In this document: positions 46,268-64,000 of the stretch, piece by piece
How positions within the stretch are numbered: position 1 is the stretch's first letter
Layout: each line of letters opens with the position of its first letter
Source of the DNA: an uncultured Gemmatimonadales bacterium
GTDB lineage: Bacteria; Gemmatimonadota; Gemmatimonadetes; Gemmatimonadales; GWC2-71-9
Assembly (NCBI GenBank): GCA_963844035.1
Contig: CAWJMT010000035.1
Coordinates: forward strand, 258,764-322,763
Direction of reading: 5' to 3'
Length of the DNA: 64,000 bases
The notes under the pieces: model-generated
Seen by the model: only the letters and a program-made list of their open reading frames with translations
What the model was told of the DNA's origin: nothing
The model's database searches: none
Program-made: the position numbers and the translations under genes

Positions 46268-47280
46268 GCGAGACGGTGGTCACGTTCTGCGTGGCCGTCG
46301 CCGAGACCGAACGCCTCGACCGCTTTCTCGCCGAGCAGCTGTCCCTCTCCCGTACGGTTGCCGCCCGTCTCATAGCCGACAAGCGCGTTTCCGCCGACGG
46401 GCGTCCGTTGCGCGCATCAGCGCAGCTGGCCCGGGCCACCGTCGTGTCCGTGTCGTTCCCTCCCACGGCAGAACCCCGCATGTACGCCCCGGCGGCGCGT
46501 GACCTCGCGTTCGTGTTCGAGGACGAGCACATGGCGGTGCTCGACAAGCCGGCCGGCCTCGTGGTCCATCCCGGCCCGGGGCACTGGGACGATTCCCTCG
46601 TCAACGTGCTGACGACTCGCGGCACCGCGCTGGCCCCGGGCGCGGAGCCCGGACGCCCCGGGATCGTGCACCGGCTCGACCGCGACACCTCGGGGCTGCT
46701 GCTGATCGCCAAGACCGATGAAGCGCACCGGCGCCTGGCCCGCGCGATCGAGCAACGCCGGGTGGAGCGCGTGTACGCGGCGGTCGCGTGGGGGCATCTG
46801 GCGAACAAACGCGTGACGATCGAAGCGCCTATCATGCGCAACCCCGCCGACCGGCAGCGGATGACGGTGAAGGCGGGCGGCCGGCATGCCGTCACCTACG
46901 CCGAGGTTGTCGCCCGGTTCGCCCATATCGACCTGTTGCGCGTGCGGCTGGGGACGGGGCGCACGCATCAGATCCGCGTTCACCTGGCCCATGTCGGCCA
47001 CCCGGTGGTGGGCGACCGGGAGTACGCCCTGGGAGGGAGCCGCCGGGTGACCCCGTCGATGCGCCGGGCGGCGGAGCGGATCGAGGAGCTCGCGCCCCGG
47101 CAGCTGTTGCATGCCGCCATGCTCACCTTGGAGCATCCCGTGACCGGCGCGCGCCTGGCGCTCACGTCCGAATGGCCCGTGGAATTGCTCCCGGCCCTGG
47201 CCGAAGGGGCCGAAGATCCCAATTTGCTTGCTCAGCGCAACCCCTTGCAGTATCTTGGCTTCTTCGCTTCTGATGGCTGA
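46264..47280 (+). CDS. rluD: RluA/RluD family 23S rRNA pseudouridine synthase
   Basis: S4-like RLDRFL, KPAGLVVHP, HRLDRDTSG, TGRTHQIRVH. Confidence 0.92.
   Translation: MSETVVTFCVAVAETERLDRFLAEQLSLSRTVAARLIADKRVSADGRPLRASAQLARATVVSVSFPPTAEPRMYAPAARDLAFVFEDEHMAVLDKPAGLVVHPGPGHWDDSLVNVLTTRGTALAPGAEPGRPGIVHRLDRDTSGLLLIAKTDEAHRRLARAIEQRRVERVYAAVAWGHLANKRVTIEAPIMRNPADRQRMTVKAGGRHAVTYAEVVARFAHIDLLRVRLGTGRTHQIRVHLAHVGHPVVGDREYALGGSRRVTPSMRRAAERIEELAPRQLLHAAMLTLEHPVTGARLALTSEWPVELLPALAEGAEDPNLLAQRNPLQYLGFFASDG
47228..47256 (+). promoter_or_regulatory. Putative sigma70 promoter of the che/mgl operon, inside the rluD 3' end
   Basis: TTGCTC-17 nt-TATCTT in a locally AT-rich patch, 16 nt before the cheW ATG. 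Confidence 0.55.
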
Positions 47281-47737
47281 CGGCGGGGTGGTCCGGCTGC
47301 TCGTGTTCCGCGTAGGCGCCCTCGCCTGTGCGGCCGCGGCGGAAACGGTGCGGGAGATCCTGCCGCGCCTGGCAACCACCAGAATTCCGGGTGCCCCGGT
47401 GGTCGTGGCTGGGGTGATCAACGTCCGCGGGAGCTTGGTGACGGTGGTGGAGGGATGGCGGGCGCTTGGCCAGCCGGCGCCGACCGGGGAGACGCCGGAA
47501 GGGGAAACGCCGCCCGGAACCACCGTGGTGCTGGAATTCGCGGGTGGTCGCAAGATCGCCGGCTTTACGGTGGATGAAGTGATCGACCTCCTTTCGGTAG
47601 GCGGCGAGACGCTGGAGCGCCGACAGGCGTTGCCCGGCATCGACCCGGCGCTGGTGCGGGCTGTGGGCCGCCGGAGCGGGCAGCTCTTCGTGGTCCTCGA
47701 TACTGACGCCCTGCTAACCCCAATTCTTGCTTCCTAG
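47273..47737 (+). CDS. cheW: Chemotaxis coupling protein CheW (1)
   Basis: VREIL..TRIPGAP..V.GVINVRG, GFTVDEV. Confidence 0.9.
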   Translation: MADGGVVRLLVFRVGALACAAAAETVREILPRLATTRIPGAPVVVAGVINVRGSLVTVVEGWRALGQPAPTGETPEGETPPGTTVVLEFAGGRKIAGFTVDEVIDLLSVGGETLERRQALPGIDPALVRAVGRRSGQLFVVLDTDALLTPILAS

Positions 47738-47746
47738 GGAGGAAGT

Positions 47747-48109
47747 GTGAACCACACCGTCCTCGTCTGCGATGACGCCATCTTCATGCGGACGATGATC
47801 AGCGACATCCTGACGCAGGCCGGCTTCGAGATCGTGGGCGAGGCTGAGACCGGCGCCCAGGCCGTTGAGAAATACAAGCTGCTCCGGCCCGATCTGGTCA
47901 CGATGGACATCGTGATGCCCGACATGGGCGGCATCGACGCGGTGCGGGAGATCGTGAAGGGCGATCCCAACGCCAAGGTGCTGATGTGCAGTGCCATGGG
48001 TCAGCAGGCCCTGGTGGTGGAGGCGATTCAGGCCGGCGCGAAGGACTTCGTAGTGAAGCCGTTCCAGCCCTCCCGCGTGCTCGAGGCCGTGCAGCGGGTT
48101 CTCGGTTAG
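47747..48109 (+). CDS. cheY: CheY response regulator, Bacillus CheY/DifD-like
   Basis: DDAIFMR, DLVTMDIVMP, MCSAMGQQ, AKDFVVKPF. Confidence 0.95.
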   Translation: MNHTVLVCDDAIFMRTMISDILTQAGFEIVGEAETGAQAVEKYKLLRPDLVTMDIVMPDMGGIDAVREIVKGDPNAKVLMCSAMGQQALVVEAIQAGAKDFVVKPFQPSRVLEAVQRVLG

Positions 48110-48110
48110 C

Positions 48111-50042
48111 ATGGATCTCTCGCAGTACGCCGAGCTGTTCCTCGCCGAATCCCGCGAGCACCTGAGCGCGTGCAACCATCTGCTCCTCGAGTGGGAGCGA
48201 GATCCGGCGGCGCGCGAGCCCGTGAGCGGCATCTTTCGCGCGGTGCACACGGTGAAAGGCATGGCGGCCACGATGGGGTACGCCCGCGTGGCCGATCTGG
48301 CGCACCGCGCGGAGAACCTGCTCGACGCCCTGCGCCGCAGCTCGACCGCCGTGACTGACGATCTGGTGCAGCTGATGTTCCGCACCGTGGACCTCCTGGA
48401 GCGATCGGTGGAGCTGTCCGTGGTGGGCCGCGAGGGCGAGCTGGATGTCGCCGCGGTCGCCGCGGAGCTGGAGCGGGCGAGCGCCGCCATGGCTCCCCGT
48501 GCCGCGCGCGCGACGCCGCCGCCGGCCGCCGCTGCCGTCTCCGCCACGCCCTCCACCACCTCCACATCCTCGACCCCCTCCACCGCGGCCACTCCTGCCG
48601 CGGTACCGGAAGAGGGTCGCCTGGTGCAGGTGACGTTGCGTCCCGATTCGCTGCTCAAGGGTGGGCGCGCGCTGATCGTGCTGCGCAAGGCGCAGGCGCT
48701 CGGCACCGTGCACGGAATCACGCCGCCCCCGACGGCATTCGAGTCCGAGGACTTCGACGGGCGCCTGGCCTTCCGGCTCGATTCGGCGGCAACGGTCGAC
48801 GCCATCGTCCAGGCGATCCAGGGCGCCGGCGATGTCGAAGCGGTCACGGTCGTGTCGGAGGCTCAGGAGGAGCTGCGGCCCGAGGGCGGCGCGGAAGGCG
48901 CCCGCACGCGGCATCTCCGCGTCGATCTGCGGCGGCTCGACACCTTGATGGATCTGATCGGCGAGCTCGTCATCGCACGGGGCCGGCTGAACGAGCTGGC
49001 CGCCCTGCGCCGCGATCCCGCGGTCGACGACATCGCGATCCATGTCTCCCGCCTGTCGATCGATTTGCAGGACGAGATCATCCAGGCGCGCATGACGCCG
49101 GTGTGGCAGGTGTTCGACCGGCTGCCGCGCCTGGTGCGCGACAGCGCGCGCGAGCTGGGCAAGCAGGTCGCGTTCCGGATCGAAGGGAAAGACATCGAGC
49201 TGGACCGCGCGATCCTGGACGAGCTGATGGATCCGCTCGTGCACCTGCTGCGCAACGCGGTGGATCACGGCCTCGAGTCGCCCGCGGAGCGCCGCAAGGC
49301 CGGGAAGCCGGTGGAGGGAGAAATCCTGCTCTCCGCGGTGCGCGAGCGCTCGAGCGTCACGATCACGATCACCGACAACGGGCGCGGCATCGATCGCGCG
49401 AAGGTACTCGCGCGCGCCAAGCGGGAGGGTCTGGTCGAGGCGCATGCCGACACGCTCACCGACGACCAGCTGCTGCGGATCCTGGCGCGCCCCGGGTTCA
49501 CCACCGCCGAGGCGGTGACCACGGTGTCGGGCCGGGGCGTGGGGATCGACGTCGTGACCACGCGGCTGCGGGCGCTCGGCGGCTCGATCGAAGTACGCTC
49601 GGAGCCGGGCAAGAGCACGAGCTTCGTGCTGCGGCTGCCGGTGACGCTCGCGATCGTTCGCGCGCTGATCGCCAGCGTGGGCCGCGAGCGCTACGCGCTC
49701 CCGCTCACGTACGTGTCGGAGACGGTAGAGTTCGGTGACGAGCCGACGACGATGATCGAGGGGCGGGAGGCGATCGTGCTGCGCGACCGGGTCGTGCCGC
49801 TGGTCCATCTGCGCGCCCTGCTCGGCGTCCACGGCGACGCACCGCCGCCGCGCCGGCCCATCATCGTGCTCGAGATGGGCGATCGCCGTGCCGGTCTCGT
49901 GGTGGACGGCATGCTCGGCCAGCGGGAGATCGTGGTGAAGAGTTTCGACGCGCCGCGCGGCACGCTGCCGCTGTTCAGCGGGGCGACGATCATGGGCGAC
50001 GGAGTCCCGGCGTTGATTCTGGACGCCGGCGGAATCGTGTAA
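48111..50042 (+). CDS. cheA: Chemotaxis histidine kinase CheA
   Basis: Hpt FRAVHTVKGMA, P2-like domain, LDTLMDLIGELVI, HLLRNAVDHG, SGRGVGIDVV, C-terminal CheW domain. Confidence 0.97.
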   Translation: MDLSQYAELFLAESREHLSACNHLLLEWERDPAAREPVSGIFRAVHTVKGMAATMGYARVADLAHRAENLLDALRRSSTAVTDDLVQLMFRTVDLLERSVELSVVGREGELDVAAVAAELERASAAMAPRAARATPPPAAAAVSATPSTTSTSSTPSTAATPAAVPEEGRLVQVTLRPDSLLKGGRALIVLRKAQALGTVHGITPPPTAFESEDFDGRLAFRLDSAATVDAIVQAIQGAGDVEAVTVVSEAQEELRPEGGAEGARTRHLRVDLRRLDTLMDLIGELVIARGRLNELAALRRDPAVDDIAIHVSRLSIDLQDEIIQARMTPVWQVFDRLPRLVRDSARELGKQVAFRIEGKDIELDRAILDELMDPLVHLLRNAVDHGLESPAERRKAGKPVEGEILLSAVRERSSVTITITDNGRGIDRAKVLARAKREGLVEAHADTLTDDQLLRILARPGFTTAEAVTTVSGRGVGIDVVTTRLRALGGSIEVRSEPGKSTSFVLRLPVTLAIVRALIASVGRERYALPLTYVSETVEFGDEPTTMIEGREAIVLRDRVVPLVHLRALLGVHGDAPPPRRPIIVLEMGDRRAGLVVDGMLGQREIVVKSFDAPRGTLPLFSGATIMGDGVPALILDAGGIV

Positions 50043-50053
50043 GGGGAGGACAG

Positions 50054-50671
<618 letters not shown>

Positions 50672-50674
50672 GCC

Positions 50675-53368
50675 GTGACGGCGCCGGCGCCCTCGGAACG
50701 CGACCTCGCCGTCCTCCGATCCTTCGCCCGCCGGATCGATGTATCCGATGCGGGCGCCCACAACAATCTCGGCGTGGTCTACTATCGCAAGGGTCTGATC
50801 GAGGAAGCGATCGCGGAGTTCACGCGCGCCCTCGAGCTCGACCCCAAGATGCAGGTCGCGCAGCGCAACCTCGAAATCGCCTACCACAACACCGGGTTCT
50901 ACGACCGGCGCGTGGCCGAGCTGCAGGAACGCCTGCGCCAGGCGCCGGACGAGCGCGAGGCGCGCTGGGAGCTGGGCCGTGCGTACGCGGTGCTCGGGCA
51001 GGACCAGGAGGCGATCGCCGAGTTCGAGGAGCTGCTCGCCAAGAAGCCCGACGACATCGGGGCGATCATCCAGCTCGGGCTCGCCGAGAAGAATCGCGGC
51101 CGTCTGGACGTGGCGACCGAGTGGTTTCTCCGTGCCTGCGAGCGTGATCCCTCGAGCAGCGTGGCCCAGTTCTATCTCGCCGAGGTCTACTACAACCGGG
51201 GCCTGAACGCCGACGCGCTGGCGGCGCTGGACCGGGCGATCTCGCTCAACCCCGACAACGCGAACGCGCACTACCTCATGGCGTTCGTGCTGGGCGACAT
51301 GGGCCGCCACCAGGACGCGCGGGCCGCGTCCAAGCGCGCGATTCAGCTCAACCCGCCGCTGGCGCGCGCCCAAACCAACCTCTCGCTCGAGCGCTACACC
51401 GCCGAGCACAAAGCCCGCGAGCTGCGGGCGCGCGACGCCCCCGAGCCGACCATCATCGAGGGCAACGCGCTCGCGCACTACAACCTCGGGCTGGCCTTCC
51501 GCCAGAAGGGCTACTACAACGAGGCGCTGCACGAATACCGCCTCGCCCTGGAGCGCGGGGAGGACCGCAAGCTCGCGTTGCAGGCGATGGCCGAGGTGCA
51601 CTTGCTCAAGCGCGACCTCCCGGCGGCGCGCGAGCTGTACGAGACGCTGCTGCGCGAGTCGCCCGAGTCGCCCAAGCTGTGGAACGAGCGGGGCGTGGTG
51701 CTGCAGCAGGGCGGCCAGGCGGACGAGGCCCTCGCGTCGTACCAGCAGGCGGTGCAGGTGGACCCCAAGTACGGCCTGGCGTGGAACAACCTCGGCGTGC
51801 TGCTGGCCCACCGCGGCGAGACGGAGCAGGGGATCGACGCGTTCCGGACGGCGCTGCAGTGCCAGAGCACGCTCAGCGCCGCGCGCTTGAACCTCGCCCT
51901 GCTGCTGTTTCAGCTGCGGCGCTTTCAGCTGTCGCTCGAAGCCTACCGCCAGGTGCTCACCAATGAGCCGAACTCCGCCGCCACCTGGAACGGCATCGGT
52001 CTCGTGCTCGTCGAGCTGAAGCGCTTCACCGACGCGCGCAACGCGTTCGTGCGGGCGATCGAAGGCGACGCCGAGCACGCGGGGGCGCATTACAACCTCA
52101 GCTTCACGCTCTCGAACCTGGGCGACTACGACGGCGCGCTGCGGGCCACCAAGCGCGCCCTGGAAATCGACCCCTACTACGTCTCGCAGAAGTTCGCGCT
52201 CACGATCGACCTGCAGTTCGAGAAGGGGACGATCGGCGTCGCTCCGGAAATCTCGGCGGACGTGCTGGCGGAGACCTTAGGCGAGACGTTCTCCTTCGAT
52301 CAGCGTCTGCTCGACAACATCTTCCAGGAGCTTGCCCCGCCGGCCGCCGCGGCGAAGGACACCGCCCAGCGCGTGGAGGACCCGCTCGCGCTCGCCCGCG
52401 ACTATCTGAGCAAGGGGCTGATGGAAAACGCCTCCTCGGAAGCGGCGCGGGCGGTGCAACGCGGTGCCGATCGGGGAGATGCCGCGGTGCTATTGGGCGA
52501 CATCTTCGCCCGGCGCGGCCTGCACGGCGAGGCGCTGGAGCGGTTTCGCGAGGCGCGGGCGCTCGACGCCGCCCGGCCCGACGCGCTGCTCGGGGAAGTG
52601 CGCGCGCTGCTCGCGCTCGACCGGCTCGACGAGGGGGCCGCCCTGGCGGAGCAGCTCCTGGGGCTCACCCCCGACGACGTCGAGGCGCTGGTTGCGGTGG
52701 CCAAGTGCCGCGCGGCGGCCGGCGATGCCGGGGGCGCGCTGACGGTGCTGAAGCAGGCACAGACGCGCGCGCCCGCCCGGGCCGATCTCCGGAAGCTCGA
52801 GGGCGACGTGGCGCTCAAGGTCGGGGATCCGGGCAGCGCGCGCACCGCGTACCGCTCGGCGCTGGAGCTCGACCCGGGATACGTCCAGGTGTGGCTCGAG
52901 CTGGGCCGGCTGCACGAGCTGAAGGAAGAGTGGGGTCCGGCCGAGCAGGCCTACGAGCAGGCGCTCGAAAAGCTCCCGAGTTTCTACGAGGCGGCGCTCG
53001 CGCTCGCCGACCTGCTGCGCCGCGTGGGGCGCGTGCGCCATGCCGTCACCCGGCTGGCGACGATGTTGGAGCAGGATCCCTACGATCTCAAAGCCCTGCT
53101 GCTGCTGGGCCGGGCACTGCTCGACGACAAACGCGACGCGGCGGCCCTGGAGGCGTTCCGGCGCGCCCTCCGGTTCGACCCCGAGCTGGTGGAAGCGCTG
53201 TTCCAGCTCGGCGTCGCGCTCGCCCGCGTGCACCGCTACGGCGACGCGGTGGAGGCGTGGGAGCGGGTCACCCGCCTCGATCCGTCGGGACCGTTCGCGC
53301 AGCGCGCCCGGATTCACGCGCGCACGGCGCTCGATCTGCAGCACATCTTCACCTCCGACGCGGCCTGA
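50675..53368 (+). CDS. Large cytoplasmic tetratricopeptide-repeat protein (897 aa)
   Basis: Many AHNNLG/AHYNLG..A..LDP repeats; no signal peptide. Confidence 0.9.
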   Translation: MTAPAPSERDLAVLRSFARRIDVSDAGAHNNLGVVYYRKGLIEEAIAEFTRALELDPKMQVAQRNLEIAYHNTGFYDRRVAELQERLRQAPDEREARWELGRAYAVLGQDQEAIAEFEELLAKKPDDIGAIIQLGLAEKNRGRLDVATEWFLRACERDPSSSVAQFYLAEVYYNRGLNADALAALDRAISLNPDNANAHYLMAFVLGDMGRHQDARAASKRAIQLNPPLARAQTNLSLERYTAEHKARELRARDAPEPTIIEGNALAHYNLGLAFRQKGYYNEALHEYRLALERGEDRKLALQAMAEVHLLKRDLPAARELYETLLRESPESPKLWNERGVVLQQGGQADEALASYQQAVQVDPKYGLAWNNLGVLLAHRGETEQGIDAFRTALQCQSTLSAARLNLALLLFQLRRFQLSLEAYRQVLTNEPNSAATWNGIGLVLVELKRFTDARNAFVRAIEGDAEHAGAHYNLSFTLSNLGDYDGALRATKRALEIDPYYVSQKFALTIDLQFEKGTIGVAPEISADVLAETLGETFSFDQRLLDNIFQELAPPAAAAKDTAQRVEDPLALARDYLSKGLMENASSEAARAVQRGADRGDAAVLLGDIFARRGLHGEALERFREARALDAARPDALLGEVRALLALDRLDEGAALAEQLLGLTPDDVEALVAVAKCRAAAGDAGGALTVLKQAQTRAPARADLRKLEGDVALKVGDPGSARTAYRSALELDPGYVQVWLELGRLHELKEEWGPAEQAYEQALEKLPSFYEAALALADLLRRVGRVRHAVTRLATMLEQDPYDLKALLLLGRALLDDKRDAAALEAFRRALRFDPELVEALFQLGVALARVHRYGDAVEAWERVTRLDPSGPFAQRARIHARTALDLQHIFTSDAA

Positions 53369-53371
53369 TCC

Positions 53372-54523
53372 ATGGCAATTGAAGGCCCGCTTCGGGAACT
53401 CGGCATCCACGATGTGTTCCAGCTCCTCGACCTGAGCCGGAAGACGGGCGTGCTGCGTGTCACGTCGGATCTGCGGCACAACGCGGGGACCGTGCACTTC
53501 GAGGCGGGCACGATCGTGTTCGCCGAGATTCGCAGCAATCCCCACCCGCTCGGGGCGCTGCTGCTGCGCACCGGAAAAGTGACCGAAGCCGATCTCGAGC
53601 GCGCGCGCGACATGCAGACGCGCCAGGGAGATCCGCGCCGGCTGGGCCAGATCCTGGTCGATCTCGGAGCGATCTCGGCGCGCGAGCTCGAGCGCCAGAT
53701 GCGGTTCCAGATCGAGGAAGTCGTGTTCGAGATGATGAGCTGGCACGAAGGATTCTTTTCCTTCGGCGAGGAGACCGTGGCCGTTCCGGCGGACGCCGTG
53801 CGGATTCGCACCGAGGCGATCCTCATGGAGGGCGCGCGGCGCATCGACGAGTGGTCCCGCATCGAGAAGCGGATTCCGCACCTCGGCGTGGTGCCGCAGC
53901 TGGCGCCGCCGCGCGACGGGGACGCGGGCCAGGTCGATCTGCTCCCGGCGGAGTGGGAGCTGCTCGCGCTGTTTGACGGCGAGCGCGACGTGCGGACCCT
54001 CGCGGGGGAGCTGGGGCGCTCGGACTTCGAGGTCGCGAAGACGCTGTTCGGCCTGGAAAGCGCGGGCGTGATCATGCTGGTCGATCAGGGGCCCGCCAAG
54101 GGCGAGCGCGTGACGACGGCGGCGCAGCTCGCGGAGCTGGTCGCCCGCGCCGAGGACGCGCTCGCCGGCAAGGACCTGGGGCGCGCGCGCGCCGAAGCGG
54201 AGCAGGCCGCCGGCCTGTTCCCGCACGACGCCACGGTGCACCTGCTGCTCGGCCGCATCCAGCTCGCCGCCGCCCGCCCGAGCGACGCCGCCGACGAGCT
54301 GCGGCGCGCGCTCCACCTCGACCCGCTGCTGGTCCCGGCGCATCGGATCCTCGGGTACGCCCTCGTGGCGTCGGGTCGGTTCGCGGAGGCGGTCGAGCAG
54401 TGGGAGCACTGGGAGCGGCTCGCGTCCCGCTCGGATGCGGAGACCGCGCAGCTCGAGCAGGTGCGGCGCGCCAAGCTGGCGGCGCAGACGCTGCTGGGCG
54501 CCGGAGTGCCGAGCCATGGCTGA
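53372..54523 (+). CDS. DUF4388 (PatA-N-like) + MshEN-like + TPR protein
   Basis: MAIEGPLRELGIHDVFQLL..RKTG.L N-terminus; RLGQILVDLG repeat; LMEGARRIDEW; C-terminal TPRs. Confidence 0.85.
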   Translation: MAIEGPLRELGIHDVFQLLDLSRKTGVLRVTSDLRHNAGTVHFEAGTIVFAEIRSNPHPLGALLLRTGKVTEADLERARDMQTRQGDPRRLGQILVDLGAISARELERQMRFQIEEVVFEMMSWHEGFFSFGEETVAVPADAVRIRTEAILMEGARRIDEWSRIEKRIPHLGVVPQLAPPRDGDAGQVDLLPAEWELLALFDGERDVRTLAGELGRSDFEVAKTLFGLESAGVIMLVDQGPAKGERVTTAAQLAELVARAEDALAGKDLGRARAEAEQAAGLFPHDATVHLLLGRIQLAAARPSDAADELRRALHLDPLLVPAHRILGYALVASGRFAEAVEQWEHWERLASRSDAETAQLEQVRRAKLAAQTLLGAGVPSHG

Positions 54524-55352
54524 CGACATCAAGTCGCTCTCGGCCCAGCTCGCGCAGGACCCCACCAGCATGGTGTTCCTGCGGTTGGCGGAGCTGTTGC
54601 GCCAGCGCGGGCAGCTCGACGCCGCGCACCGCGTGGCGGTGGGCGGGCTGGAGCGGCACCCGCACATGGCCGACGCGCACGACCTGTTCGCGCGCATCCT
54701 CGCCGACAAGGGCGACTTCGAGCGCGCCTTCGACGAATGGGACATGGCGGTGCGGATCGCCCCGGGCCATACCGGGGCGCTCAAGGGGCTCGCGTTTCTG
54801 TACTTCAAGGTGGGCGACGTGGATCAGGCGGTGGCGCACCTCGAGTCGGCGCGGCGGCACAGTCCCGACGACCCGAGCATCGATCAGGCGCTCGCGGTGG
54901 TGCGGGGCGGCGGGCCCGCGAAGGCGGCGCCCGGCCCCGCCGCGGCGTCGCGCGAGCCGGCGGCAACCGCCGCCACCGCGGCCCCGCTCGAGGACGCGCG
55001 GGTATTCGCCGGCCTCGAAGGCGCGCAGGAGGGGCTGCTGTTGCTCGACGCCGCGGGGCGGGTGCTGGGGGGCGCGCTGCGGAATCCCGCCGGTGACGAC
55101 GTGACCGACGCGGTGGCCGCGTATCTCGCCGGCGTGTCGCAGGAAGCGGCGCGCACCGCCAAGCTGCTGGGGCTCGGGACGTGGACGGGACTCGCGACCG
55201 AAGGGGGCCAGGGTCACGTGCACCTCGCCCAGCCTACTCCCGACGCGCTGCTCCTCGTGGTGCGGGATCGCGCCACGCCGATGGGACGGCTCGCCATCGT
55301 GGCGCAGCGGGCGGCGCACGCGGCCCGCCGCTGGCTGGAGCAGCAGGGATGA
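54516..55352 (+). CDS. TPR + C-terminal roadblock/LC7-like domain protein
   Basis: DPTSMVFLRLAE N-terminal TPRs, Ala/Pro linker, then LLLLDAAGRVL..AAYLAG..LG.W....E...LLLVV..GRL roadblock-like fold. Confidence 0.7.
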   Translation: MADDIKSLSAQLAQDPTSMVFLRLAELLRQRGQLDAAHRVAVGGLERHPHMADAHDLFARILADKGDFERAFDEWDMAVRIAPGHTGALKGLAFLYFKVGDVDQAVAHLESARRHSPDDPSIDQALAVVRGGGPAKAAPGPAAASREPAATAATAAPLEDARVFAGLEGAQEGLLLLDAAGRVLGGALRNPAGDDVTDAVAAYLAGVSQEAARTAKLLGLGTWTGLATEGGQGHVHLAQPTPDALLLVVRDRATPMGRLAIVAQRAAHAARRWLEQQG

Positions 55353-55702
55353 CGACCGCTCCGTTCCAGCGCGCGCTCGATCTGATCACCCGCGTCCGCG
55401 GCGTGCGGGGGGCCATGCTGGTCTCCGCGGCGGACGGGCTGGTGGTCGCCGAGCACCTCATGGAGGGGATCAAGGGAGGCGCCGTCGCCGCGCTCGCGGG
55501 CAGCCTGTCCAATCGGCTGGGGAAGGCGATGGAGGCGGCGGGGATCGGACGGAGCGTCTTCTGGCATCTCCAGGGGACCGACGGTGCGCTGCTCGTGGTG
55601 CCGGCCACTTCGGGGATTCTCGTGGTCGCGGTGACGGAGCCGGAGGTGAATGTCGGATTGGTGCGGCTCGAGCTGCTGGGCGCGGCGGGGGTGGTGGGAT
55701 GA
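55349..55702 (+). CDS. Roadblock/LC7 domain protein
   Basis: VRGVRGAMLVSAADGLVVA..AALA...LVVAVT..VNVGLVRLEL. Confidence 0.85.
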   Translation: MTTAPFQRALDLITRVRGVRGAMLVSAADGLVVAEHLMEGIKGGAVAALAGSLSNRLGKAMEAAGIGRSVFWHLQGTDGALLVVPATSGILVVAVTEPEVNVGLVRLELLGAAGVVG

Positions 55703-56169
55703 GCACGCGCGCCGTCGAAACCTGGACACTCGACCCGTTGAAACACTTCGTGAGCGAGGCGAGCGCCCGTCTGGTGCTGCTGATGACGCCGGCGGGGCAG
55801 GTGATGGCCCAGCACGGGTTCTCGCGCGCGGTGGACGTGATGTCGGCGGCGGCACTCGGGGCGGCGATCATGGCGTCGACGGCGGAGATCGCGCGCCAGC
55901 TGGCGCAGCCGCCGTTCGCGGCGCTCACCCACCAGGGCGATCGCCACGGCATCTTTCTCGGCGCCGTGCCCACGAACCGCGGGACGATCGTCGCGCTGGT
56001 CGTGTTCGATCTCGACGCTTCGTCCGCCGGGCTGGTGCAGCTATTCTTTGAGCAACTCGGCGCCGAGCTCAAGGCCGCGAGCCCCAAGGAGGGCGTGCCC
56101 AAGCAGGTGCTCGCCGCCGACTTCGAGCGCGAGCTGAGCGACAGTCTCAACACGCTGTTCGGGAGATAG
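55699..56169 (+). CDS. mglB: MglB-like roadblock protein (putative MglA GAP)
   Basis: LLMTPAGQV.AQHG..AALGAA..AST...A.....F..L.HQG...VVFD..SS.GLV and C-terminal helix DSLNTLFG; directly upstream of mglA. Confidence 0.8.
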   Translation: MSTRAVETWTLDPLKHFVSEASARLVLLMTPAGQVMAQHGFSRAVDVMSAAALGAAIMASTAEIARQLAQPPFAALTHQGDRHGIFLGAVPTNRGTIVALVVFDLDASSAGLVQLFFEQLGAELKAASPKEGVPKQVLAADFERELSDSLNTLFGR

Positions 56170-56172
56170 CCC

Positions 56173-56772
56173 GTGTCCCTGGTGAACTTCACGACGCGCG
56201 AGATCACCTGCAAGATCGTGTACTACGGTCCCGGGCGGTCGGGGAAGACGACGAACCTGCACTACATCTACGGCCGCGTGCCGGATCAGCGGCGCGGGCG
56301 CATGGTGTCGCTCGCGACCCAAACCGACCGTACGCTGTTCTTCGACTTCCTGCCGATCGATCTCGGACAAATCTCCGGCTTCTCGACGCGCTTCCAGCTG
56401 TACACGGTGCCCGGCCAGGTCTACTACAACGCGACCCGCCGGCTGGTGCTCCAGGGCGCCGACGGCGTGGTGTTCGTGGCCGACAGCCAGGCGCGGCAGC
56501 TCGACGAGAATATCGAGAGCCTGCAGAACCTCCAGAGCAACCTGCTCGAGATGGGCGTGGATATCCGCACGCTGCCGGTGGTGATGCAGTACAACAAGCA
56601 GGACCTGCCCCGCGAGCTGATTCTCCAGACCGCGGACCTGGACGACTCGCTCAATTTCCGCAGCATCCCGAGCTTCGGCGCCGACGCGCTGCATGGCCGC
56701 GGCGTGTTCGAAACCCTCAAGGGGATCTCCGAGCAGGTGCTCAAGAAGCTCTCGGCGGGGAGCACGGTGTGA
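56173..56772 (+). CDS. mglA: MglA small Ras-like GTPase
   Basis: KIVYYGPGRSGKTTNL, TDRTLFFDFLP (intrinsic Arg finger), LYTVPGQV, QYNKQDL. Confidence 0.96.
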   Translation: MSLVNFTTREITCKIVYYGPGRSGKTTNLHYIYGRVPDQRRGRMVSLATQTDRTLFFDFLPIDLGQISGFSTRFQLYTVPGQVYYNATRRLVLQGADGVVFVADSQARQLDENIESLQNLQSNLLEMGVDIRTLPVVMQYNKQDLPRELILQTADLDDSLNFRSIPSFGADALHGRGVFETLKGISEQVLKKLSAGSTV

Positions 56773-58730
56773 CCGCAGCGCTCAACGCCAAGTTTTCGTT
56801 CGAGACATTCGTGGTCGGCGCGGCCAACCGCCTGGCGGTCACCGCCGGCCGCACGGTTGCCGAGAACCCCGCGTCCGCCTACAACCCGCTGTTCATCTAT
56901 AGTGGGTCGGGGCTTGGCAAGACGCACCTGCTGATGGCGGTGGGCCAGGCGGCGCTCAAGCTCTCGCCCACCCTCAATATCGAGTACCTGACCCTGGACG
57001 AGTACGTCGAGTCGTTCCACGCCGCCGTGGCCGCGGGGCAGGGCGATGCGTTCCGGCGCCGGTTCCAGAACGTCGACGTGTTGATGATCGACGACGTGCA
57101 GTTCCTGACCAATCGCAAGGAGATGCAGGCCGAGCTGCTGCGGCTCACCGAAGCGCTGCAGGGGGCGGGGCATCAGGTCGTGCTCACGAGCGACCGCCCG
57201 CCGGCCGAGATTGCGGATCTGGACGAACGGTTGATCTCGCGGTTCTCGGGGGGTCTCGTCGTGGACATCGGGGCGCCCGACTACGAGACGCGCGTGGCGA
57301 TTCTGCGGCGCAAGGCGGACGAGCGCGGCGCGAAATTCCAGCCGGGCGTGATGGAGCTGGTCGCGGGCGCGGAGTTCCAGAACGTGCGCGAGTTGATGGG
57401 CGCGCTGAACCGGCTGGTGGCCTATCAGGCCGTGAACGAGTCGCCCTTGAACGTCGAAGGCGCGAAGCATCTGCTCGGCCTTTCGTTTCCCGCCACTGCG
57501 GCCGGATCGCCGCCGGCGACGGCGGGGGGGAGGGGGAGGGGGAGGGGGGATGAATTCGGCGCGTTCCTGCAGGACGTGACCGCCACGGTTGGCAAGGCGG
57601 TGGAGGCGTGGCGCGCGCGCGTCGGGGAAGCGGTGATGCGGTGGGACGGGGAGGGATACCGCACACGCCGGCTGGAGGCGCTGCTCGAGCAGGAAACCCC
57701 GGCGGCGGTCGACGAGGTGATCGCTCAGTTTGGGGTGGATGTCGAGCGGTTGAAGGAGCTCGAGGCGCAGGTCGCGGCACTCGACCCGCAGGCCGCCGGG
57801 CATGCGATGTTCCGCGACCCGGAGCGTCTGGCCGAGGCGGAGGCGGCGGCGGCCACCGTTCAGGCGGGTGCGGCGCCGCCCCCCGAACCCTCGAAGGCGT
57901 TTCCCCTGGCGGCGTTCGCGGTGGGGCCCTCGAACCAGGTGGCCGTGAGCGCGGTGCACGCGGTGCTCAAGCAGCCCGGGAAGAAGTACAACCCGCTGGT
58001 GCTCACCGGGAAGAGCGGGCTCGGCAAAACGCACCTCTTGAACGCGATCGGACTCGAGCTCGCGAAGGCGCGGCGGGCCGTCGTGGCGTGCCTGTCCACG
58101 CAAGCCTTCATCGACGAGCTCATCGCGGCGATTGACGGCGACCGCGTGGATTGGTGGCGTGCGCGGTACCGCCGCTGCACCGCGTTGCTGCTCGACGACA
58201 TTCACCTCATCGCGGGCAAGGATCGCACGCAGGAAGAGCTGTTCAACCTCTTCAACCTGCTGCACGATGGCGAGCGCCAGCTGGTGTTCACGGCCCCGGC
58301 CCATCCCAATACGCTGGTCGGCGTGGAAGAGCGCATCGGATCGCGGCTCGAGGGCGGGCTGGTGGTGGAGCTGGGGGAGCCCGACCGCGACGTGCGGCGC
58401 GCGGTGCTCAATCGTCTGTTCGCGCAGCATGAAGCCGAGCCCGACCCCGCGCTGCGGGACTACCTGGCCGACCGGCCGGCGGATTCGGTCCGTACCCTGA
58501 TCGGGGTTGTGCAGCGGGTGACGAGCGCCGCGGCGGCGCAGGAGCAGGCGCTCACCGTTGGCCTGGCGCGCGAAGTCCTCGAAGGCCAGCCTGCCGCCTC
58601 CGGGCGTCCCACGGGCCCGTTCCGCACCAGCGGCCTGATCGTGTCGAGCCTGGGCGGCATCCGCAGCCGCGAAAAGATGGCGTGGGACTGGCCCGACCCC
58701 GCGGACCGCATGATCGAGGATCTGCGCTGA
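56769..58730 (+). CDS. Protein with two tandem DnaA/Hda-type AAA+ modules, no DNA-binding domain IV
   Basis: Module 1: FETFVVGAANRLA..YNPLFIYSGSGLGKTHL..MIDDVQF..RLISRF..NVRELMGAL. Module 2: FAVGPSNQVA..YNPLVLTGKSGLGKTHL..LLDDIHL..RIGSRLEGG..SVRTLIG. Confidence 0.9.
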   Translation: MTAALNAKFSFETFVVGAANRLAVTAGRTVAENPASAYNPLFIYSGSGLGKTHLLMAVGQAALKLSPTLNIEYLTLDEYVESFHAAVAAGQGDAFRRRFQNVDVLMIDDVQFLTNRKEMQAELLRLTEALQGAGHQVVLTSDRPPAEIADLDERLISRFSGGLVVDIGAPDYETRVAILRRKADERGAKFQPGVMELVAGAEFQNVRELMGALNRLVAYQAVNESPLNVEGAKHLLGLSFPATAAGSPPATAGGRGRGRGDEFGAFLQDVTATVGKAVEAWRARVGEAVMRWDGEGYRTRRLEALLEQETPAAVDEVIAQFGVDVERLKELEAQVAALDPQAAGHAMFRDPERLAEAEAAAATVQAGAAPPPEPSKAFPLAAFAVGPSNQVAVSAVHAVLKQPGKKYNPLVLTGKSGLGKTHLLNAIGLELAKARRAVVACLSTQAFIDELIAAIDGDRVDWWRARYRRCTALLLDDIHLIAGKDRTQEELFNLFNLLHDGERQLVFTAPAHPNTLVGVEERIGSRLEGGLVVELGEPDRDVRRAVLNRLFAQHEAEPDPALRDYLADRPADSVRTLIGVVQRVTSAAAAQEQALTVGLAREVLEGQPAASGRPTGPFRTSGLIVSSLGGIRSREKMAWDWPDPADRMIEDLR

Positions 58731-60346
58731 TGGCGATCAAAGGCTCACTCAAGGAAGCGTCGCTCCCCGATGTGCTGCAGCTGCTGGCGCTGGGGCAGAA
58801 GACCGGGTGCCTGTCGATCGCCGACCGCTCGAACTTCGGCTACATCTACTTCGAGAAGGGCCGCATCTCGTACGCGTCGATCGTCAACCGGCGCGACCGG
58901 CTGGGGGAGATCCTGTCGAAGCACGGCCGCATCACCGCGGAGCAGCTCGACGCGGCGGTGCACCGGCAGGGCAAGGACCGCGACAAGAAGCTCGGCCAGA
59001 TCCTCGTGGCCCAGGAGGTCATCACGCAGCAGGACCTCGAGCGCTACATGCGCGTGCAGATCGAGGAGTCGGTCTACTACCTGTTCACCTGGACGCAAGG
59101 CTCGTTCAACTTCGAGGCCGACGTGCGGCCCGACCGCCAGGATTTTCTCGTCTCGATCAATCCCGAGTCGCTGCTGCTCGAGGGCGCGCGGCGCGTGGAC
59201 GAATGGAGCCTGATCGAGAAGAAGATTCCCAGCTTCGACCTGATCTTCGTCGTGGACCGCGACCGGCTGGCGATCTCGGAGGCGAAGCTCAACGACGCGC
59301 AGCAGCGCATCCTCCCGCTGCTCGACGGCACGCGCGACGTGAACCAGGTGATCGAAGACTCCGGGCTCGGAGAGTTCGAGATCGGCAAGGCGCTGTACGG
59401 GCTGCTCACCGCCGGCTACCTGCATCGCTCGGGCAAGACCGCGTCGACCGTCGACACCCACGTGACCGACGCCCGCATCGAGGAGCACCGCAACCTGGGC
59501 GTCGCGTTCTACAAGACCGGGATGCTGGATGAGGCCGCGCGCGAGTTCCGGCGGGTGGTGGACCTGCGACCCGCCGAAGCGAGCGCGCACTTTTTCCTCG
59601 GCCTGGTCGCCCTGCGCCAGGCCCGCTGGCGTGAGGCCGTCGACATGCTGCGGCTCGCCGCCGAGCGCGGCGGCAACCAGCCCGCGGTGCTGCACAACCT
59701 GGGGCTGGCGTACGAGCTGGTGGGGCGGCTCCCCGAGGCGGAAGCGGCGTACGCCGAAGCGGCGACGCGCGCCAAGACCGACGGCCGCATCTATCTCGGC
59801 TGGGGCATCGTGACGCTCAAGCAGGGCGATTTTGCGAGCGCCGCCGGCCGGCTCGATCGCGCCAAGGAGCTGTTCGGCAAGATCCCGCCCGCCACGTGGT
59901 TCTGGGCGCGCACCCTCGCGGCCGCGTCGGCGGGCGACTTCGAGCTGGCGGAGCAGCTCGCCGAGGAAGGCGCGGAAGCGTATCCCTCCCACGCCGTGTT
60001 GCAGAACAATCTCGCCGTGTTGAAGGAGCTCGCCGGCGATCTCGCCATGGCGGAGGAGCTGATCCGCGGCGCCCGCAAGAACGAGCCCTCGATGCCGCAG
60101 TTGTCCAAGAATCTCGGCGACCTCGCCTACCGGGCGTCGCGCTACGACGAGGCGTGGGACGTGTACAACCGCGCCGTCGAGCTGGCGCCCAACCTGGGCG
60201 ACGACGTGTACTTCAAACTCGGGAACATCGCCTACAAGCGAAACGACCGTGAGCTGGCGGCCCAGCTGTGGCGCAAGGCGCTCGAGCTGAATCCCAAGCA
60301 CGAGCTCGTCCGGGCCAACCTGGATACGCTGAGTGCATTGTCGTGA
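58730..60346 (+). CDS. DUF4388 (PatA-N-like) + MshEN-like + TPR protein (2)
   Basis: MAIKGSLKEASLPDVLQLL..QKTG.L; RLGEIL..G.I....L......Q repeat; LLEGARRVDEW; multiple C-terminal TPRs. Confidence 0.87.
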   Translation: MAIKGSLKEASLPDVLQLLALGQKTGCLSIADRSNFGYIYFEKGRISYASIVNRRDRLGEILSKHGRITAEQLDAAVHRQGKDRDKKLGQILVAQEVITQQDLERYMRVQIEESVYYLFTWTQGSFNFEADVRPDRQDFLVSINPESLLLEGARRVDEWSLIEKKIPSFDLIFVVDRDRLAISEAKLNDAQQRILPLLDGTRDVNQVIEDSGLGEFEIGKALYGLLTAGYLHRSGKTASTVDTHVTDARIEEHRNLGVAFYKTGMLDEAAREFRRVVDLRPAEASAHFFLGLVALRQARWREAVDMLRLAAERGGNQPAVLHNLGLAYELVGRLPEAEAAYAEAATRAKTDGRIYLGWGIVTLKQGDFASAAGRLDRAKELFGKIPPATWFWARTLAAASAGDFELAEQLAEEGAEAYPSHAVLQNNLAVLKELAGDLAMAEELIRGARKNEPSMPQLSKNLGDLAYRASRYDEAWDVYNRAVELAPNLGDDVYFKLGNIAYKRNDRELAAQLWRKALELNPKHELVRANLDTLSALS

Positions 60347-61173
60347 CGGGCGAACCGGATGAGCGCGCGCTGAAGGCGCTCACCGAGAAGATTTCCCAGG
60401 CTCGCGGGGTGTGCTGCGGTGCGTACAAGGACCGCTGTTTGCGGCGGCGCCTGGCGGTGCGCATGCGGGCGCGGGGCGTGCATACGTACGAGGCCTACAG
60501 CGAGGTGCTCGACGCCGACGCCGCCGAGTACGACCGCCTGCTCGACACCCTCACGATCAACGTCACGAAGTTCTGGCGCAACGCCGAAACGTGGCAGGCG
60601 CTCGCGCCCTACCTGGTGGAGTTGTGGCGCGCCCGGAACGGACACATGCGCGTCTGGTCGGCCGGGTGCGCCTCGGGCGAAGAGCCCTACACGCTCGCGG
60701 TCGCGCTCGCGGAAACCGCGCGCAGCCTGCGCGAGAACGAATGGCTGGCGCGCGTCCGCATCGACGCGACCGACGTGGATCGGGAGAGCCTGGAGCGGAC
60801 CAAGCTGGGAGAGTTCCCCGCCAGCACGTTCAGCGAGATGCCGGTGGAGCTGGCGCAGCGATATTTCACCGCCGTCGGCACCGCCGGGGCCACCCGCCGG
60901 CCGCTGCCGGCTCTGCAGCAGATTGTGAAGGTGCGCCGCCACGACCTGACGCGCGAGCCGCCTCCCGACCCGCCCTACGACATGATCGTGTGCCGCAACG
61001 TGGTCATCTACTTCGACCGTCCCATGCAGGAGCGCCTGTTCCAGACCTTCGTGGAGGCGATCGTGCCGGGCGGCATCCTCCTGCTCGGCAAGGTCGAGAC
61101 CCTGGTCGGGCCCGCGCGCGAGCGCCTCAAGCTCGAAGACCCGCGCGAGCGGATCTACCGCCGGCCCGCATGA
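60343..61173 (+). CDS. cheR: Chemotaxis methyltransferase CheR
   Basis: LTINVTKFWRN, WSAGCASGEEPYT, ATDVD, CRNVVIYF. Confidence 0.95.
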   Translation: MTGEPDERALKALTEKISQARGVCCGAYKDRCLRRRLAVRMRARGVHTYEAYSEVLDADAAEYDRLLDTLTINVTKFWRNAETWQALAPYLVELWRARNGHMRVWSAGCASGEEPYTLAVALAETARSLRENEWLARVRIDATDVDRESLERTKLGEFPASTFSEMPVELAQRYFTAVGTAGATRRPLPALQQIVKVRRHDLTREPPPDPPYDMIVCRNVVIYFDRPMQERLFQTFVEAIVPGGILLLGKVETLVGPARERLKLEDPRERIYRRPA

Positions 61174-61667
61174 CTTCACCGGTCCCCAAGGAAACGATCG
61201 TGCGGGTGGCGGATTGGGCCGCGCGGCGCGGCGACGAAGCGCTCGTGACGCTGGGCCTGGGGTCGTGCGTCGCCATTATGTTGCATGACCCCAAAGCGTG
61301 GGCGGGCGCGATGGCGCACGTTCTGCTCCCCTCCCAGAGTCTCGCCCGGGACACAACCAACCCCGCGAAGTTTCCGGAGACTGCGGTCCCGTTCCTCGTC
61401 AAACAGCTCGAGGCGCTGGGCGCCGATCCGCGCCGCATCGTGGCCAAGCTCGCCGGTGGGGCGAGCATGTTCGCGCAGCTCATGACGCCCGGGTCGATAC
61501 AGATGGGGGAGCGCAACCTGGTCGCGACCCGCAAGGCCCTGCGTGCGGCCTCGATCCCGCTCGCGGCGGAAGCGGTGGGGGGTGAGGCCGGCCGCTCGGT
61601 GCGTTTTTTCGTCGCCGACGGCCGGGTCGAAATCCGCTCCGTGGGAGTCAATGTCGTCTGCATCTGA
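61170..61667 (+). CDS. cheD: Chemoreceptor glutamine deamidase CheD
   Basis: [33 protein letters not shown]. Confidence 0.93.
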
Positions 61668-62745
61668 CGCGCGTCCCAGCGTGCTGATCGTGGACGACAG
61701 CGCGCTGATGCGCCGCGTGCTGTCGGACATCTTGGGCGGGTCGGGGGGGCAACCCGGGGAGTTCCGGGTGGTGGCGGCGGCGCGCGACGGCTTCGATGCG
61801 CTCCGCAAAGTGCACCAATTCGAGCCGGACGTCATCACCATGGATCTCGAGATGCCGGAGCTCGACGGCCTCGGCGCGATCGGGTACATCATGTCCGAGA
61901 CGCCGCGGCCGATCGTGGTGGTGAGTGCGCACGTGGGCCCCGGTACCGCCGCGGTGATTCGCGCGCTCGAGCTCGGGGCGGTGGAGATCGTCACCAAGCC
62001 GGAGGAGGCGACCCGGACGGCGCTGGAGCGGCTGGGGCCGCAGCTCATCGGAGCGGTGCGCCGCGCGCTCGCGGCCGACGTGTCGCGCGTTCCGGTGATG
62101 GCGCGCCCGCCGGCGCCCGTGCGGCACGCGCTCGAAACCGGCCTGCGGCCCCGCGCCCGCGTCGTGGCGGCGATCGCATCGTCGACCGGGGGACCCCGCG
62201 CGCTCGCGGAGGTGGTGCCGCGCATCCCTACGGGCCGTCACGCCGTCCTCATCGTGCAGCACATGCCGCCCAAGTTCACGCGCTCCCTGGCGGAGCGGCT
62301 CGACTCGATGAGCCCGTTGCACGTGGTCGAGGCCGATCACGGCGCGCCGGTGGTCGAGGGCACAGCGTACGTGGCCCCGGGCGATTATCATATGCGGGTG
62401 ACAGCCGCGCCCGACGGTCCGCAGATCACGCTCGACCAGGGGCCGCCCATCTGGGGCGTGCGTCCGGCCGCCGACCCGACGTTCCGCTCCGTCGCCACGC
62501 TGTTCGGCGCACGCAGTCTGGGGGTCGTGCTCACCGGCATGGGACGGGACGGCGCCGAGGGGCTGCGTGCAATTCACGACGCCGGCGGCAGCGGCTTCGC
62601 CCAGGACCGTGAAACGTCGATCATCGCCGGCATGCCCACGGCGGCGGTGCAGGCCGGGGGCGTGGACGCGGTGCTGCCCCTCGGACAGATCGCCGATCGC
62701 ATTGCGTCGGAGCTGTTGCGCCGCGACCCGGTGGCGCGCCCGTGA
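61651..62745 (+). CDS. cheB: Chemotaxis methylesterase CheB (receiver + esterase)
   Basis: [34 protein letters not shown]. Confidence 0.96.
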
Positions 62746-63155
62746 GCCGCGGCTACCTGCTGGTGCAGGTGGAGGGCGCGAGCTACGGACTGCCGCTCGA
62801 GCCCGTCCTGCAGGTGGACGACATCGGCGAGGTGTTGGAGGTGCCGACCGTCCTGCCCGCGATGCGCGGGCTCACGCCGCTCAACGGACGGCTGGTGCCG
62901 CTGATCCACCTGGGCGCGCTGCTCGGCAATCGCGAGCCGCCCACCCGGCGCGGGGCGGCCACCGTACTCGTGGGCCTGGGAGGCCGCACCCGTCTCGTGG
63001 CCCTCGAGGTCGACGATGCCGACGAGGTCGTGCGCGAGCCGGTGCTGCCCGCGCCTCCCGGCGAAACCTTGCCCTGGGCGTCCGGGGTGGCGCGACGTGA
63101 GGGGACCCTGGTGCCGATCCTGGACTGGAACGTTTTGGAGGAACGCATCAAGTGA
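62742..63155 (+). CDS. cheW: CheW-like protein (2)
   Basis: [10 protein letters not shown]....MRGL....[17 protein letters not shown]. Confidence 0.8.
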
Positions 63156-63628
63156 CCACAGGGGACGACGTCCAGCTCGTCGCCTTCCGGCTGGCCGGCC
63201 AGGAATTCGCCTTCAACATCTTTCAGGTGGAACGGATTCTCCGGCACGAAGCTGCATCCCCGCTCCCCAAGGCACCGGATTTCCTCGAAGGCGTGCTGCA
63301 GTATCAGGGCGGCGCCGTCCCGCTCATCGATCTGCGCAAGCGCCTCAGCGTGGCCGCGCCGGTCAAGGAGGAAACCCGTACGGTGATCCTCGAGTCGGAG
63401 GGTGCGAAGATCGGGGTGATCGTGGATGCGGTCACCGAGGTACTCCAGGTCGCGGCCTCCGAGATCACGCCGCCTTCCAAGATGGTCAAAGGACTGGCGG
63501 CAGAGTACATCAGCGGGCTGGTGGTGAAGGACGGGCGCACGATCATCGTGCTCAACACCGGTCAGCTCCTGAACGCCAAGGAGAAAATGGCGCTCGAGGC
63601 AGTGCTCCCCAAGGCCAAGGCGTCGTGA
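63152..63628 (+). CDS. cheW: CheW (3)
   Basis: QLVAFRLAGQEFA..VERI..LPKAPDFLEGV..VPLIDLRKRL..GVIVDAVTEV. Confidence 0.92.
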   Translation: MTTGDDVQLVAFRLAGQEFAFNIFQVERILRHEAASPLPKAPDFLEGVLQYQGGAVPLIDLRKRLSVAAPVKEETRTVILESEGAKIGVIVDAVTEVLQVAASEITPPSKMVKGLAAEYISGLVVKDGRTIIVLNTGQLLNAKEKMALEAVLPKAKAS

Positions 63629-64000
63629 GCGAGTCCCCGATTGGGGCCCTGCGGGGCGAGTACGACGCCATCGCCCGCCGGCTCGACAGCGCGCCCGCCG
63701 GACGCCGAGCGCGACGTCGTCAAGCGCGACATCATCGGCTACTTCAAGCAGGTGGACACACTCATCACCGAGCTGATGGAGCTGAAGGAGGACGTCCGCA
63801 AGCTCGTCGAGCGCTACAAGCAGCTCGCGGCGTCCACGGCGGAGGCCTCGGCGCCGGAGTTCACCAGCGCTCGTCCGGCAATTCACGCCGACCACATCGG
63901 CGCCTCGACCTTCATCGAGAAGGGCTGGAGCCTCATCTCGCTCGGCGATCACGCCGGCGCGGTGCAGGCGTTGCAGAAGGCGCTGAAGCTGTCGCCCGGC
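63625..64000 (+). CDS. Coiled-coil + TPR protein, partial (runs off right edge; indel near 63700)
   Basis: GTG overlaps the cheW stop. Reads ..VVKRDIIGYFKQVDTLITELMELKEDVRKLVERYKQL..FIEKGWSLISLGDHAGAVQALQKALKLSPG. Confidence 0.7.
   Translation, partial: MSESPIGALRGEYDAIARRLDSAPAGRRARRRQARHHRLLQAGGHTHHRADGAEGGRPQARRALQAARGVHGGGLGAGVHQRSSGNSRRPHRRLDLHREGLEPHLARRSRRRGAGVAEGAEAVAR

Follow-up and report, generated by a model that had tools for sequence, protein, structure and literature searches.

What is the ATPase core of DnaA doing in an operon that encodes a chemosensory pathway and an MglA-type small GTPase? The question is raised by a gene in the 64,000-nucleotide stretch of contig C35 of an uncultured Gemmatimonadales bacterium, referred to here as the window. 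The gene is a single open frame (56769-58730, forward strand) encoding a 653-residue protein that carries DnaA domain III twice, and we refer to its product as the tandem protein. An earlier note, made from the letters of the window alone, had proposed either a repurposed scaffold or switch, or a link between replication initiation and the polarity GTPase. Our analysis supports a repurposed, non-initiator DnaA core and lends little support to a link with replication. The reading we favor, with moderate confidence, is that the tandem protein is a DnaA-derived ATPase without DNA-reading domains, which is predicted to dock by its tail on the PATAN-TPR (tetratricopeptide repeat) protein encoded next to it and there likely gives a chemosensory/MglA pathway, one that probably steers type IV pili, an optional switch controlled by ATP.

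Architecture and authenticity of the tandem protein

A Pfam scan of the 653 residues detected two Bac_DnaA matches (E 7.8e-100) and no match to DnaA_N or Bac_DnaA_C, bearing out the description in the earlier note of a two-module protein without domains I and IV; module 1 begins at residue 5, and domain I is absent. The features of a DnaA-type AAA+ domain III (Walker A and B, sensors, Arg finger) are present and lie where the note had placed them: GSGLGKT (46-52), IDD (107-109), TSDR (140-143), SRF (157-159), and NVRE (205-208) in module 1, and KSGLGKT (415-421), LDD (475-477), SRL (525-527), and SVRT (573-576) in module 2. The note had not remarked that the sensor-I TSDR of module 1 is replaced by TAPA in module 2. 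The modules share 32% identity with each other and 41% (module 1) and 37% (module 2) with the genome's own DnaA, and the cut-off of TIGR00362 is exceeded only when the scores of both modules are summed.

An AlphaFold2 monomer model built from a 69-row alignment (mean predicted local distance difference test [pLDDT] 87.8, predicted template modeling score [pTM] 0.64) contains, in order, module 1, a disordered segment (residues 241-276, pLDDT <50), a helical domain attached to module 2, another disordered segment (613-631), and a helix at the tail. In fold searches it came closest to domain III of Bacillus subtilis DnaA (8btg and 8bv3; Z ~32, root-mean-square deviation 1.4-1.5 over 235-237 residues), and Hda structures match less well (Z ~20). 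Modeled alone, the linker domain reached a pLDDT of 89; its best fold match, an EzrA repeat at Z 6.3, is within background, and an Atlas search returned no usable match for it.

The genome has a separate canonical dnaA, which encodes domains I, III, and IV, directly precedes dnaN on contig C9 (C9:95271-96723; L001:330-1782), and provides the sole Bac_DnaA_C match in the genome. This dnaA is split over two frames in the assembly by a single shift in the domain-II linker. Because it occupies one frame in the three relatives checked, and pilM on contig C4 is likewise split, we read the shift as a sequencing error; both splits are likely assembly indels. In dozens of other genomes the tandem gene likewise occupies a single open frame, and an independent contig from soil runs from module 1 through the linker into module 2 (57132-58051), differing at 35 of 923 letters. 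With the gene widespread in Gemmatimonadota, these observations rule out an assembly-made fusion of two genes. Of the three conditions that the note had named as refuting its description (a Bac_DnaA_C match, no other DnaA in the genome, an assembly fusion), none therefore applies. A second copy of the region lies on contig C3 (C3:1-54154 against C35:271142-322763, which includes window 12379-64000) at 85% identity. We rejected an in-genome paralog for this copy on account of its abundant frameshifts (407 gap openings in 32 kb), and treat it as a stretch rich in errors that probably entered the bin from a related organism.

Among 114 modules placed in a quick tree with SH-like approximate likelihood ratio test (SH-aLRT) support, the 26 module-2 rows of Gemmatimonadota (SH-aLRT 97) and the 21 rows of Gemmatimonadota DnaA (96) form separate groups, and module 1 joins single modules from another class (92, below the starred mark). 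The comparison with DnaA and Hda that the note had called for thus set the modules apart from the DnaA of the phylum but left Hda unplaced, E. coli Hda forming a long branch. Judging from this tree, neither module is a recent copy of the phylum's dnaA.

A co-encoded TPR partner and the ATP sites

The 66 related loci we collected comprise 60 titled Gemmatimonadota, one uncultured bacterium, and five single-module matches from other phyla. By a rough count, 204 of 301 sampled Gemmatimonadota genomes (including one unpublished genome, G174, on which nothing claimed here depends by itself) match at E ≤ 1e-60, a tally in which at least five matches are ordinary DnaA and some true members score below threshold. 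Gene order is unchanged in close relatives wherever contigs extend, and mglA adjoins the gene throughout where contigs reach it. Farther away, a downstream TPR-bearing gene accompanies the ATPase in 46/46 distant loci picked by ATPase match, some of which end at contig ends, whereas mglA is present in 26. The fixed partner is therefore the downstream PATAN-TPR gene, not mglA. The note had described the tandem gene as translationally coupled to mglA; the overlap of its GTG start with the mglA stop (GTGTGA) is real, but the association was overstated. The tandem gene's own stop overlaps the ATG of the partner gene in the same manner (TGATG). Fourteen loci retain solely the tandem gene and the PATAN-TPR gene, Che and Mgl genes being absent from their surroundings; six loci belonging to a different class encode one module, an acidic spacer, and the tail, adjoining a TPR-only gene; and P0233, whose cluster has four members from three sources, joins a degenerate tandem and PATAN-TPR in one natural fusion protein. 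Among 80 chosen genomes, a set enriched for apparent negatives in which kin are not independent, 32 have the gene or a remnant together with the partner, 47 have neither, and the last, where the contig ends, was excluded from the count.

In loci that have the partner and lack both ATPase modules, a core of two short motifs survives. In all 10 such genomes an open reading frame of 60-73 residues lies upstream of the partner gene, abutting or overlapping its start in nine. These mini-proteins (L150-L158 and L162) consist, in 10/10, of two motifs of the tandem protein: motif A (EFxxFLxD) and motif B, the tail. Reading frames this short, just upstream of a PATAN-TPR gene, are easily overlooked in annotation. 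The TPR partner is present in every mini-gene locus, and mglA is missing from four of the ten. The partners have themselves changed, with the MshEN insert gone in 9/10 and the last TPRs in 10/10; the nine MshEN losses stem from four genera and are not independent. Motif B is also retained in single-module forms. To describe conservation we used an alignment of 202 rows, with proteins >900 residues left out, of which 112 span module 1, linker, and module-2 core and 96 remain at <70% identity; in these homologs W641 of motif B is kept in 90, P642 in 81, and E635 in 83.

We modeled the L153 mini-protein with its own partner. The complex reached an interface score (ipSAE) of 0.80 against 0.28 for the best of three controls; the mark used was reached by 116/157 solved complexes and 2/215 mismatched pairs, a calibration that is rough, as our own alignments were used. 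Runs agree in ≥85% of contacts, with partner pLDDT ≥74. In the model motif B sits in the TPR groove, and motif A is absent from the confident contacts. The groove positions correspond to N323, N426, N427, Q457, and N461 of the window's partner and are kept in 27-33 of 36 sequences; the groove Asn positions recur in four aligned TPR-only partners. By prediction, then, the tail is a short terminal motif lying along an Asn-lined groove, as expected of a TPR-groove peptide ligand. The model supports binding, and we consider it quite probable that the C-terminal tail binds the TPR groove of the co-encoded PATAN-TPR protein.

The two ATP sites have fared differently. In module 1, the Walker A Lys is present in 96/96 homologs and the whole site (Walker A and B) in 93/96, with sensor I kept in 77, the sensor-II Arg in 83, and the Arg finger in 74. 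In module 2, the site is intact in 55/96 and dead in 41/96, so that the note's two full ATPase modules hold for the window's copy but not throughout the family. The module-2 finger nevertheless persists in 80/96, including 33 of the 41 dead copies; the module-2 lid is covered in 53 rows. In DnaA, the Arg finger touches the ATP of the neighboring protomer (PMC8287927), and sensor II serves hydrolysis (PMC5742627). The conserved site of module 1 and the finger surviving in dead module-2 copies are most simply read as module 1 being the switch and module 2 its activator or cap. Residues contacting single-stranded DNA are lost in module 1 and partly retained in module 2. Two adjacent B. subtilis DnaA protomers form a dinucleotide pocket for base capture (PMC10721633); the equivalents of its I190, I193, R202, and E228 are kept in module 2 in 62, 72, 81, and 86 of 96 homologs, and those of I190 (9/96) and N187 (3/96) in module 1 and of N187 (3/96) in module 2 are largely lost.

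Proposed mechanism and its rivals

We propose that motif B tethers the tandem protein to the PATAN-TPR adaptor and that module 1 cycles ATP under the control of module 2 or of a second molecule. It seems slightly more probable than not that module 1 binds and hydrolyzes ATP and that the Arg finger for this comes from module 2 or from another molecule, in the way DnaA protomers meet head to tail. Motif A might grip a second partner, so that the nucleotide state would cluster or release the adaptor, a step we rate slightly below even. The PATAN domain of the adaptor would probably then act on the pilus motor, as in Synechocystis, where PATAN domains bind PilB1 and PilC (10.1101/2021.06.11.447907), and MglA would feed in through the TPR proteins of the operon, as Myxococcus MglA-GTP does through its TPR effector SgmX (PMC7519303). 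That the output is the pilus motor is an even call and the weakest step of the mechanism, because pilM is found in 31/32 carriers but also in 40/47 non-carriers. Flagella as a required output are rejected by the presence of FlhA in just 7/32 carriers (12/47 non-carriers).

Several observations weigh against this account. The monomer model (pTM 0.64) does not fix the relative placement of the two modules. The complex was modeled on a relative's mini-protein and partner instead of the window's proteins, and conservation over the whole interface does not significantly exceed that of other TPR positions (0.61 vs 0.56, p 0.095). TPR-peptide complexes are well represented among solved structures, and the model may have passed through likeness to them. 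Among homologs with a dead module 2, module 1 keeps its own finger in 37/41, so feeding of module 1 by module 2 is not the sole reading; contacts between molecules or with true DnaA may also be involved. Finally, pilM does not track with the gene.

A contact with true DnaA is what an Hda-like regulator would make: the finger of one module would insert into ATP-DnaA, and the TPR partner would tie in polarity or chemosensory state. Both modules indeed resemble DnaA most (41% and 37% identity with the copy in this genome), fingers are mostly kept (module 1 74/96, module 2 80/96), and against the Hda family model the protein reaches 185.7 bits (cut-off 194.8). A clamp-binding-like N-terminal motif, however, was found by pattern in 1/252 homologs, with the E. 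coli Hda control positive; the ATPases are dispensable in the 10 loci where the remainder of the unit persists without them and were not found in 47/80 chosen genomes; and relatives sharing the linker occur in Thermoplasmatota. Archaea initiate replication with Orc1/Cdc6. We consider this explanation unlikely, and the link to replication initiation raised in the note finds little support in the same observations. A scan for DnaA boxes found none in window 44-64 kb and is uninformative because none was found around the true dnaA either. About as improbable is a direct role on MglA, as effector or as cofactor of a guanine nucleotide exchange factor or GTPase-activating protein, with the tail merely holding the protein near the complex. 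The overlap with mglA, the adjacency in all close relatives whose contigs reach it, and the precedent of SgmX (PMC7519303) speak for such a role, and a second mglAB pair in the genome could act in trans. Even so, mglA is missing from 20/46 ATPase loci and 4/10 mini-gene loci, although some of these stretches are cut short by the end of a contig; none of the loci lacks the TPR partner.

The two modules might also rebuild the two-protomer base-capture pocket of the DnaA filament to sense c-di-GMP or a short nucleic acid. The B. subtilis pocket (PMC10721633) and the module-2 residues retained from it fit this idea, as do the MshEN-type motif in both PATAN proteins and the loss of the partner's MshEN insert in 9/10 ATPase-less loci. 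The same nine losses come from four genera, the I190 and N187 equivalents have gone from module 1 (9/96 and 3/96) and that of N187 from module 2 (3/96), and base-capture residues also line the protomer interface, which could account for their conservation; a sensor of this kind has, in our estimate, a small chance of being right. Slightly less probable still is a nucleotide-stabilized scaffold, in which polymerized modules would space out the PATAN-TPR adaptor in an array and hydrolysis would be a side effect. The freely variable module count (none, one, two, or split genes) and the rod-like archaeal relatives with up to 11 linker repeats speak for spacers, but the retention in module 1 of sensor I (77/96) and sensor II (83/96), the latter serving hydrolysis in DnaA (PMC5742627), speaks against them. 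The tail-docked, ATP-controlled switch remains the reading we favor.

Operon, relatives, and known systems

The tandem gene has no dnaN beside it, as the note had observed, and lies instead in a Che/Mgl operon ordered cheW-cheY-cheA-cheC, TPR protein, PATAN-TPR, three roadblock genes, mglA, tandem gene, PATAN-TPR, and cheR-cheD-cheB-cheW-cheW (Table 1).

Table 1. Features of the operon and of the tandem protein (window coordinates)
Feature	Position	Strand	Basis
cheW, cheY, cheA, cheC	47228..50671	+	Pfam
TPR protein, 897 residues	50675..53368	+	Pfam
Second PATAN-MshEN-TPR gene	53372..54523	+	Family-model matches
TPR-roadblock, roadblock, and MglB-like roadblock genes	54516..56169	+	Robl_LC7 matches; weak MglB matches
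mglA-type small GTPase	56173..56772	+	Arf / small_GTP matches; 50% identical to the genome's second mglA
Tandem DnaA-domain-III protein, 653 residues	56769..58730	+	Pfam, AlphaFold2, fold search
Module 1 (residues 5-236), conserved nucleotide-binding site	56781..57476	+	Homolog alignment
Motif A (residues 261-280, DEFxxFLxDVxxxV), acidic amphipathic helix	57549..57608	+	Retained in mini-proteins
Helical linker domain (residues 281-367), ~98-residue repeat unit in archaeal relatives	57609..57869	+	Model, repeat search
Module 2 (residues 378-605), with an ATP site dead in many homologs and a largely retained Arg-finger face	57900..58583	+	Homolog alignment
Motif B, C-terminal tail (REKMAWDWPDPADRMIEDLR), residues 634-653, predicted TPR-groove ligand	58668..58727	+	Conservation, complex model
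Partner, 538 residues: PATAN (DUF4388) domain, insert with an MshEN-type c-di-GMP motif, and TPR array (residues 240-538)	58730..60346	+	Family-model matches
cheR, cheD, cheB, cheW, cheW	60340..63628	+	Pfam

An MshE-related c-di-GMP motif was matched in both PATAN proteins. Despite CheC, CheD, and three CheW proteins, no chemoreceptor was detected among the scanned genes of window 47228-63628; six MCP matches lie on other contigs. The genome, 84% complete, also has pilB and pilM matches and gave no FlhA match. The operon runs on into a coiled-coil/TPR gene and a gene with a HELAH motif (window 63641-64000; L013:16195-18563). A second, stand-alone mglB-mglA pair lies outside the window (C35:95156-96331) and follows what is presumably recR. 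Metatranscriptome contigs of relatives span the mglA/tandem-gene and tandem-gene/partner junctions; they account for small shares and may reflect DNA carry-over, and we did not use them as evidence.

Beyond the phylum, the linker is repeated 3-11 times in 30/30 long DnaA-like proteins tested, with no match in 150 shuffled or 30 reversed controls; three of these proteins are named Thermoplasmata or Thermoplasmatota by source. Such Thermoplasmatota-type proteins, of ≤1650 residues, combine the helical repeats with one DnaA-like AAA+ module and often zinc ribbons (P0219, P0226, P0235, P0249, P0264, P0276-P0294, P0298-P0303). We make no claim to an N-terminal PATAN domain in the archaeal relatives, to which profile comparison assigned a probability of 2.6%. 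As a lead only, the top Atlas match for an archaeal-type protein is an archaeal cluster with Bac_DnaA and DUF835 (score 0.89), the latter listed as an inactive KaiC-type domain in archaeal regulators (PMC5847659). Other proteins, of ~1900-2000 residues, carry an N-terminal MshEN domain and DnaA-like modules (P0196, P0197, P0295-P0297); in P0196 and P0197 two modules are held apart by a long helical region. P0247 and P0254 are tandem DnaA-like proteins without the linker whose modules group with E. coli DnaA, suggesting that tandem forms probably arose more than once.

We tentatively raise, as a doubtful but wider possibility, a non-replicative and so far unrecognized DnaA branch, in which signaling scaffolds would early on have acquired the AAA+ core as their nucleotide switch. 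In Gemmatimonadota it would be a single-chain head-to-tail DnaA dimer, tethered to a PATAN-TPR adaptor that binds c-di-GMP and sets the position of type IV pili; in Thermoplasmatota it would cap a rod of the same helical repeat. DnaA domain III, known as a replication part, is here a conserved accessory of a signaling operon in a large soil phylum with little-studied motility control. Nature has supplied a series that maps its working parts: two modules, one module, a dead second module, a split gene, a fusion, and a 60-residue peptide. A single-chain DnaA-type dimer, if the tandem protein is one, would be a simple model for initiator ATPases firing in trans.

The tandem protein is real, conserved, and apparently undescribed. 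Our search, outside subscription journals and mostly on titles and the starts of abstracts, found no published account of it, and many homologs are labeled "chromosomal replication initiator" in databases. A study reporting group 1 MglA in Gemmatimonadetes, with PATAN genes near some mglA, does not mention DnaA in its main text (PMC4316618), and its supplementary neighborhood table may list the gene.

By membership the protein is neither DnaA nor Hda. With DnaA domain III (PF00308, TIGR00362; 8btg, 8bv3, 2z4r, 1l8q, 3r8f) it shares the fold, Walker A and B, initiator-specific helices, Arg finger, and sensor II; unlike DnaA, it carries the module twice in a single chain, lacks domains I and IV, and has an extra helical domain, two docking motifs, and a signaling operon around it, and both modules group apart from Gemmatimonadota DnaA in the quick tree. 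With Hda (TIGR03420; 5x06, 3bos) it has in common a DnaA-like AAA+ core without a DNA-binding domain, and its module 2 is often finger-donor-like. It differs from Hda, a single-module protein that it matches less well in structure (Z ~20), in being doubled, dispensable, and tail-tethered to a TPR protein and in having no N-terminal clamp motif; single-module relatives do exist. The uncharacterized long Thermoplasmatota proteins (P0294, P0302, P0303) share the helical repeat and a DnaA-type module without domain IV but have one module, 3-11 repeats, zinc ribbons, and no motif-B tail in the five ends viewed, and their module groups with neither module 1 nor module 2 in the quick tree. The surrounding pathway most resembles MglA/MglB-SgmX of Myxococcus and the cyanobacterial PATAN regulators PixE and PixG, which likewise combine a small GTPase with roadblock proteins, TPR adaptors, PATAN domains, a Che pathway, and, where studied, the pilus ATPase PilB. 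The accessible parts of the papers on those systems mention no DnaA-family ATPase or tail-docked accessory. Unlike them, the system described here is gathered in one operon, together with CheC and CheD.

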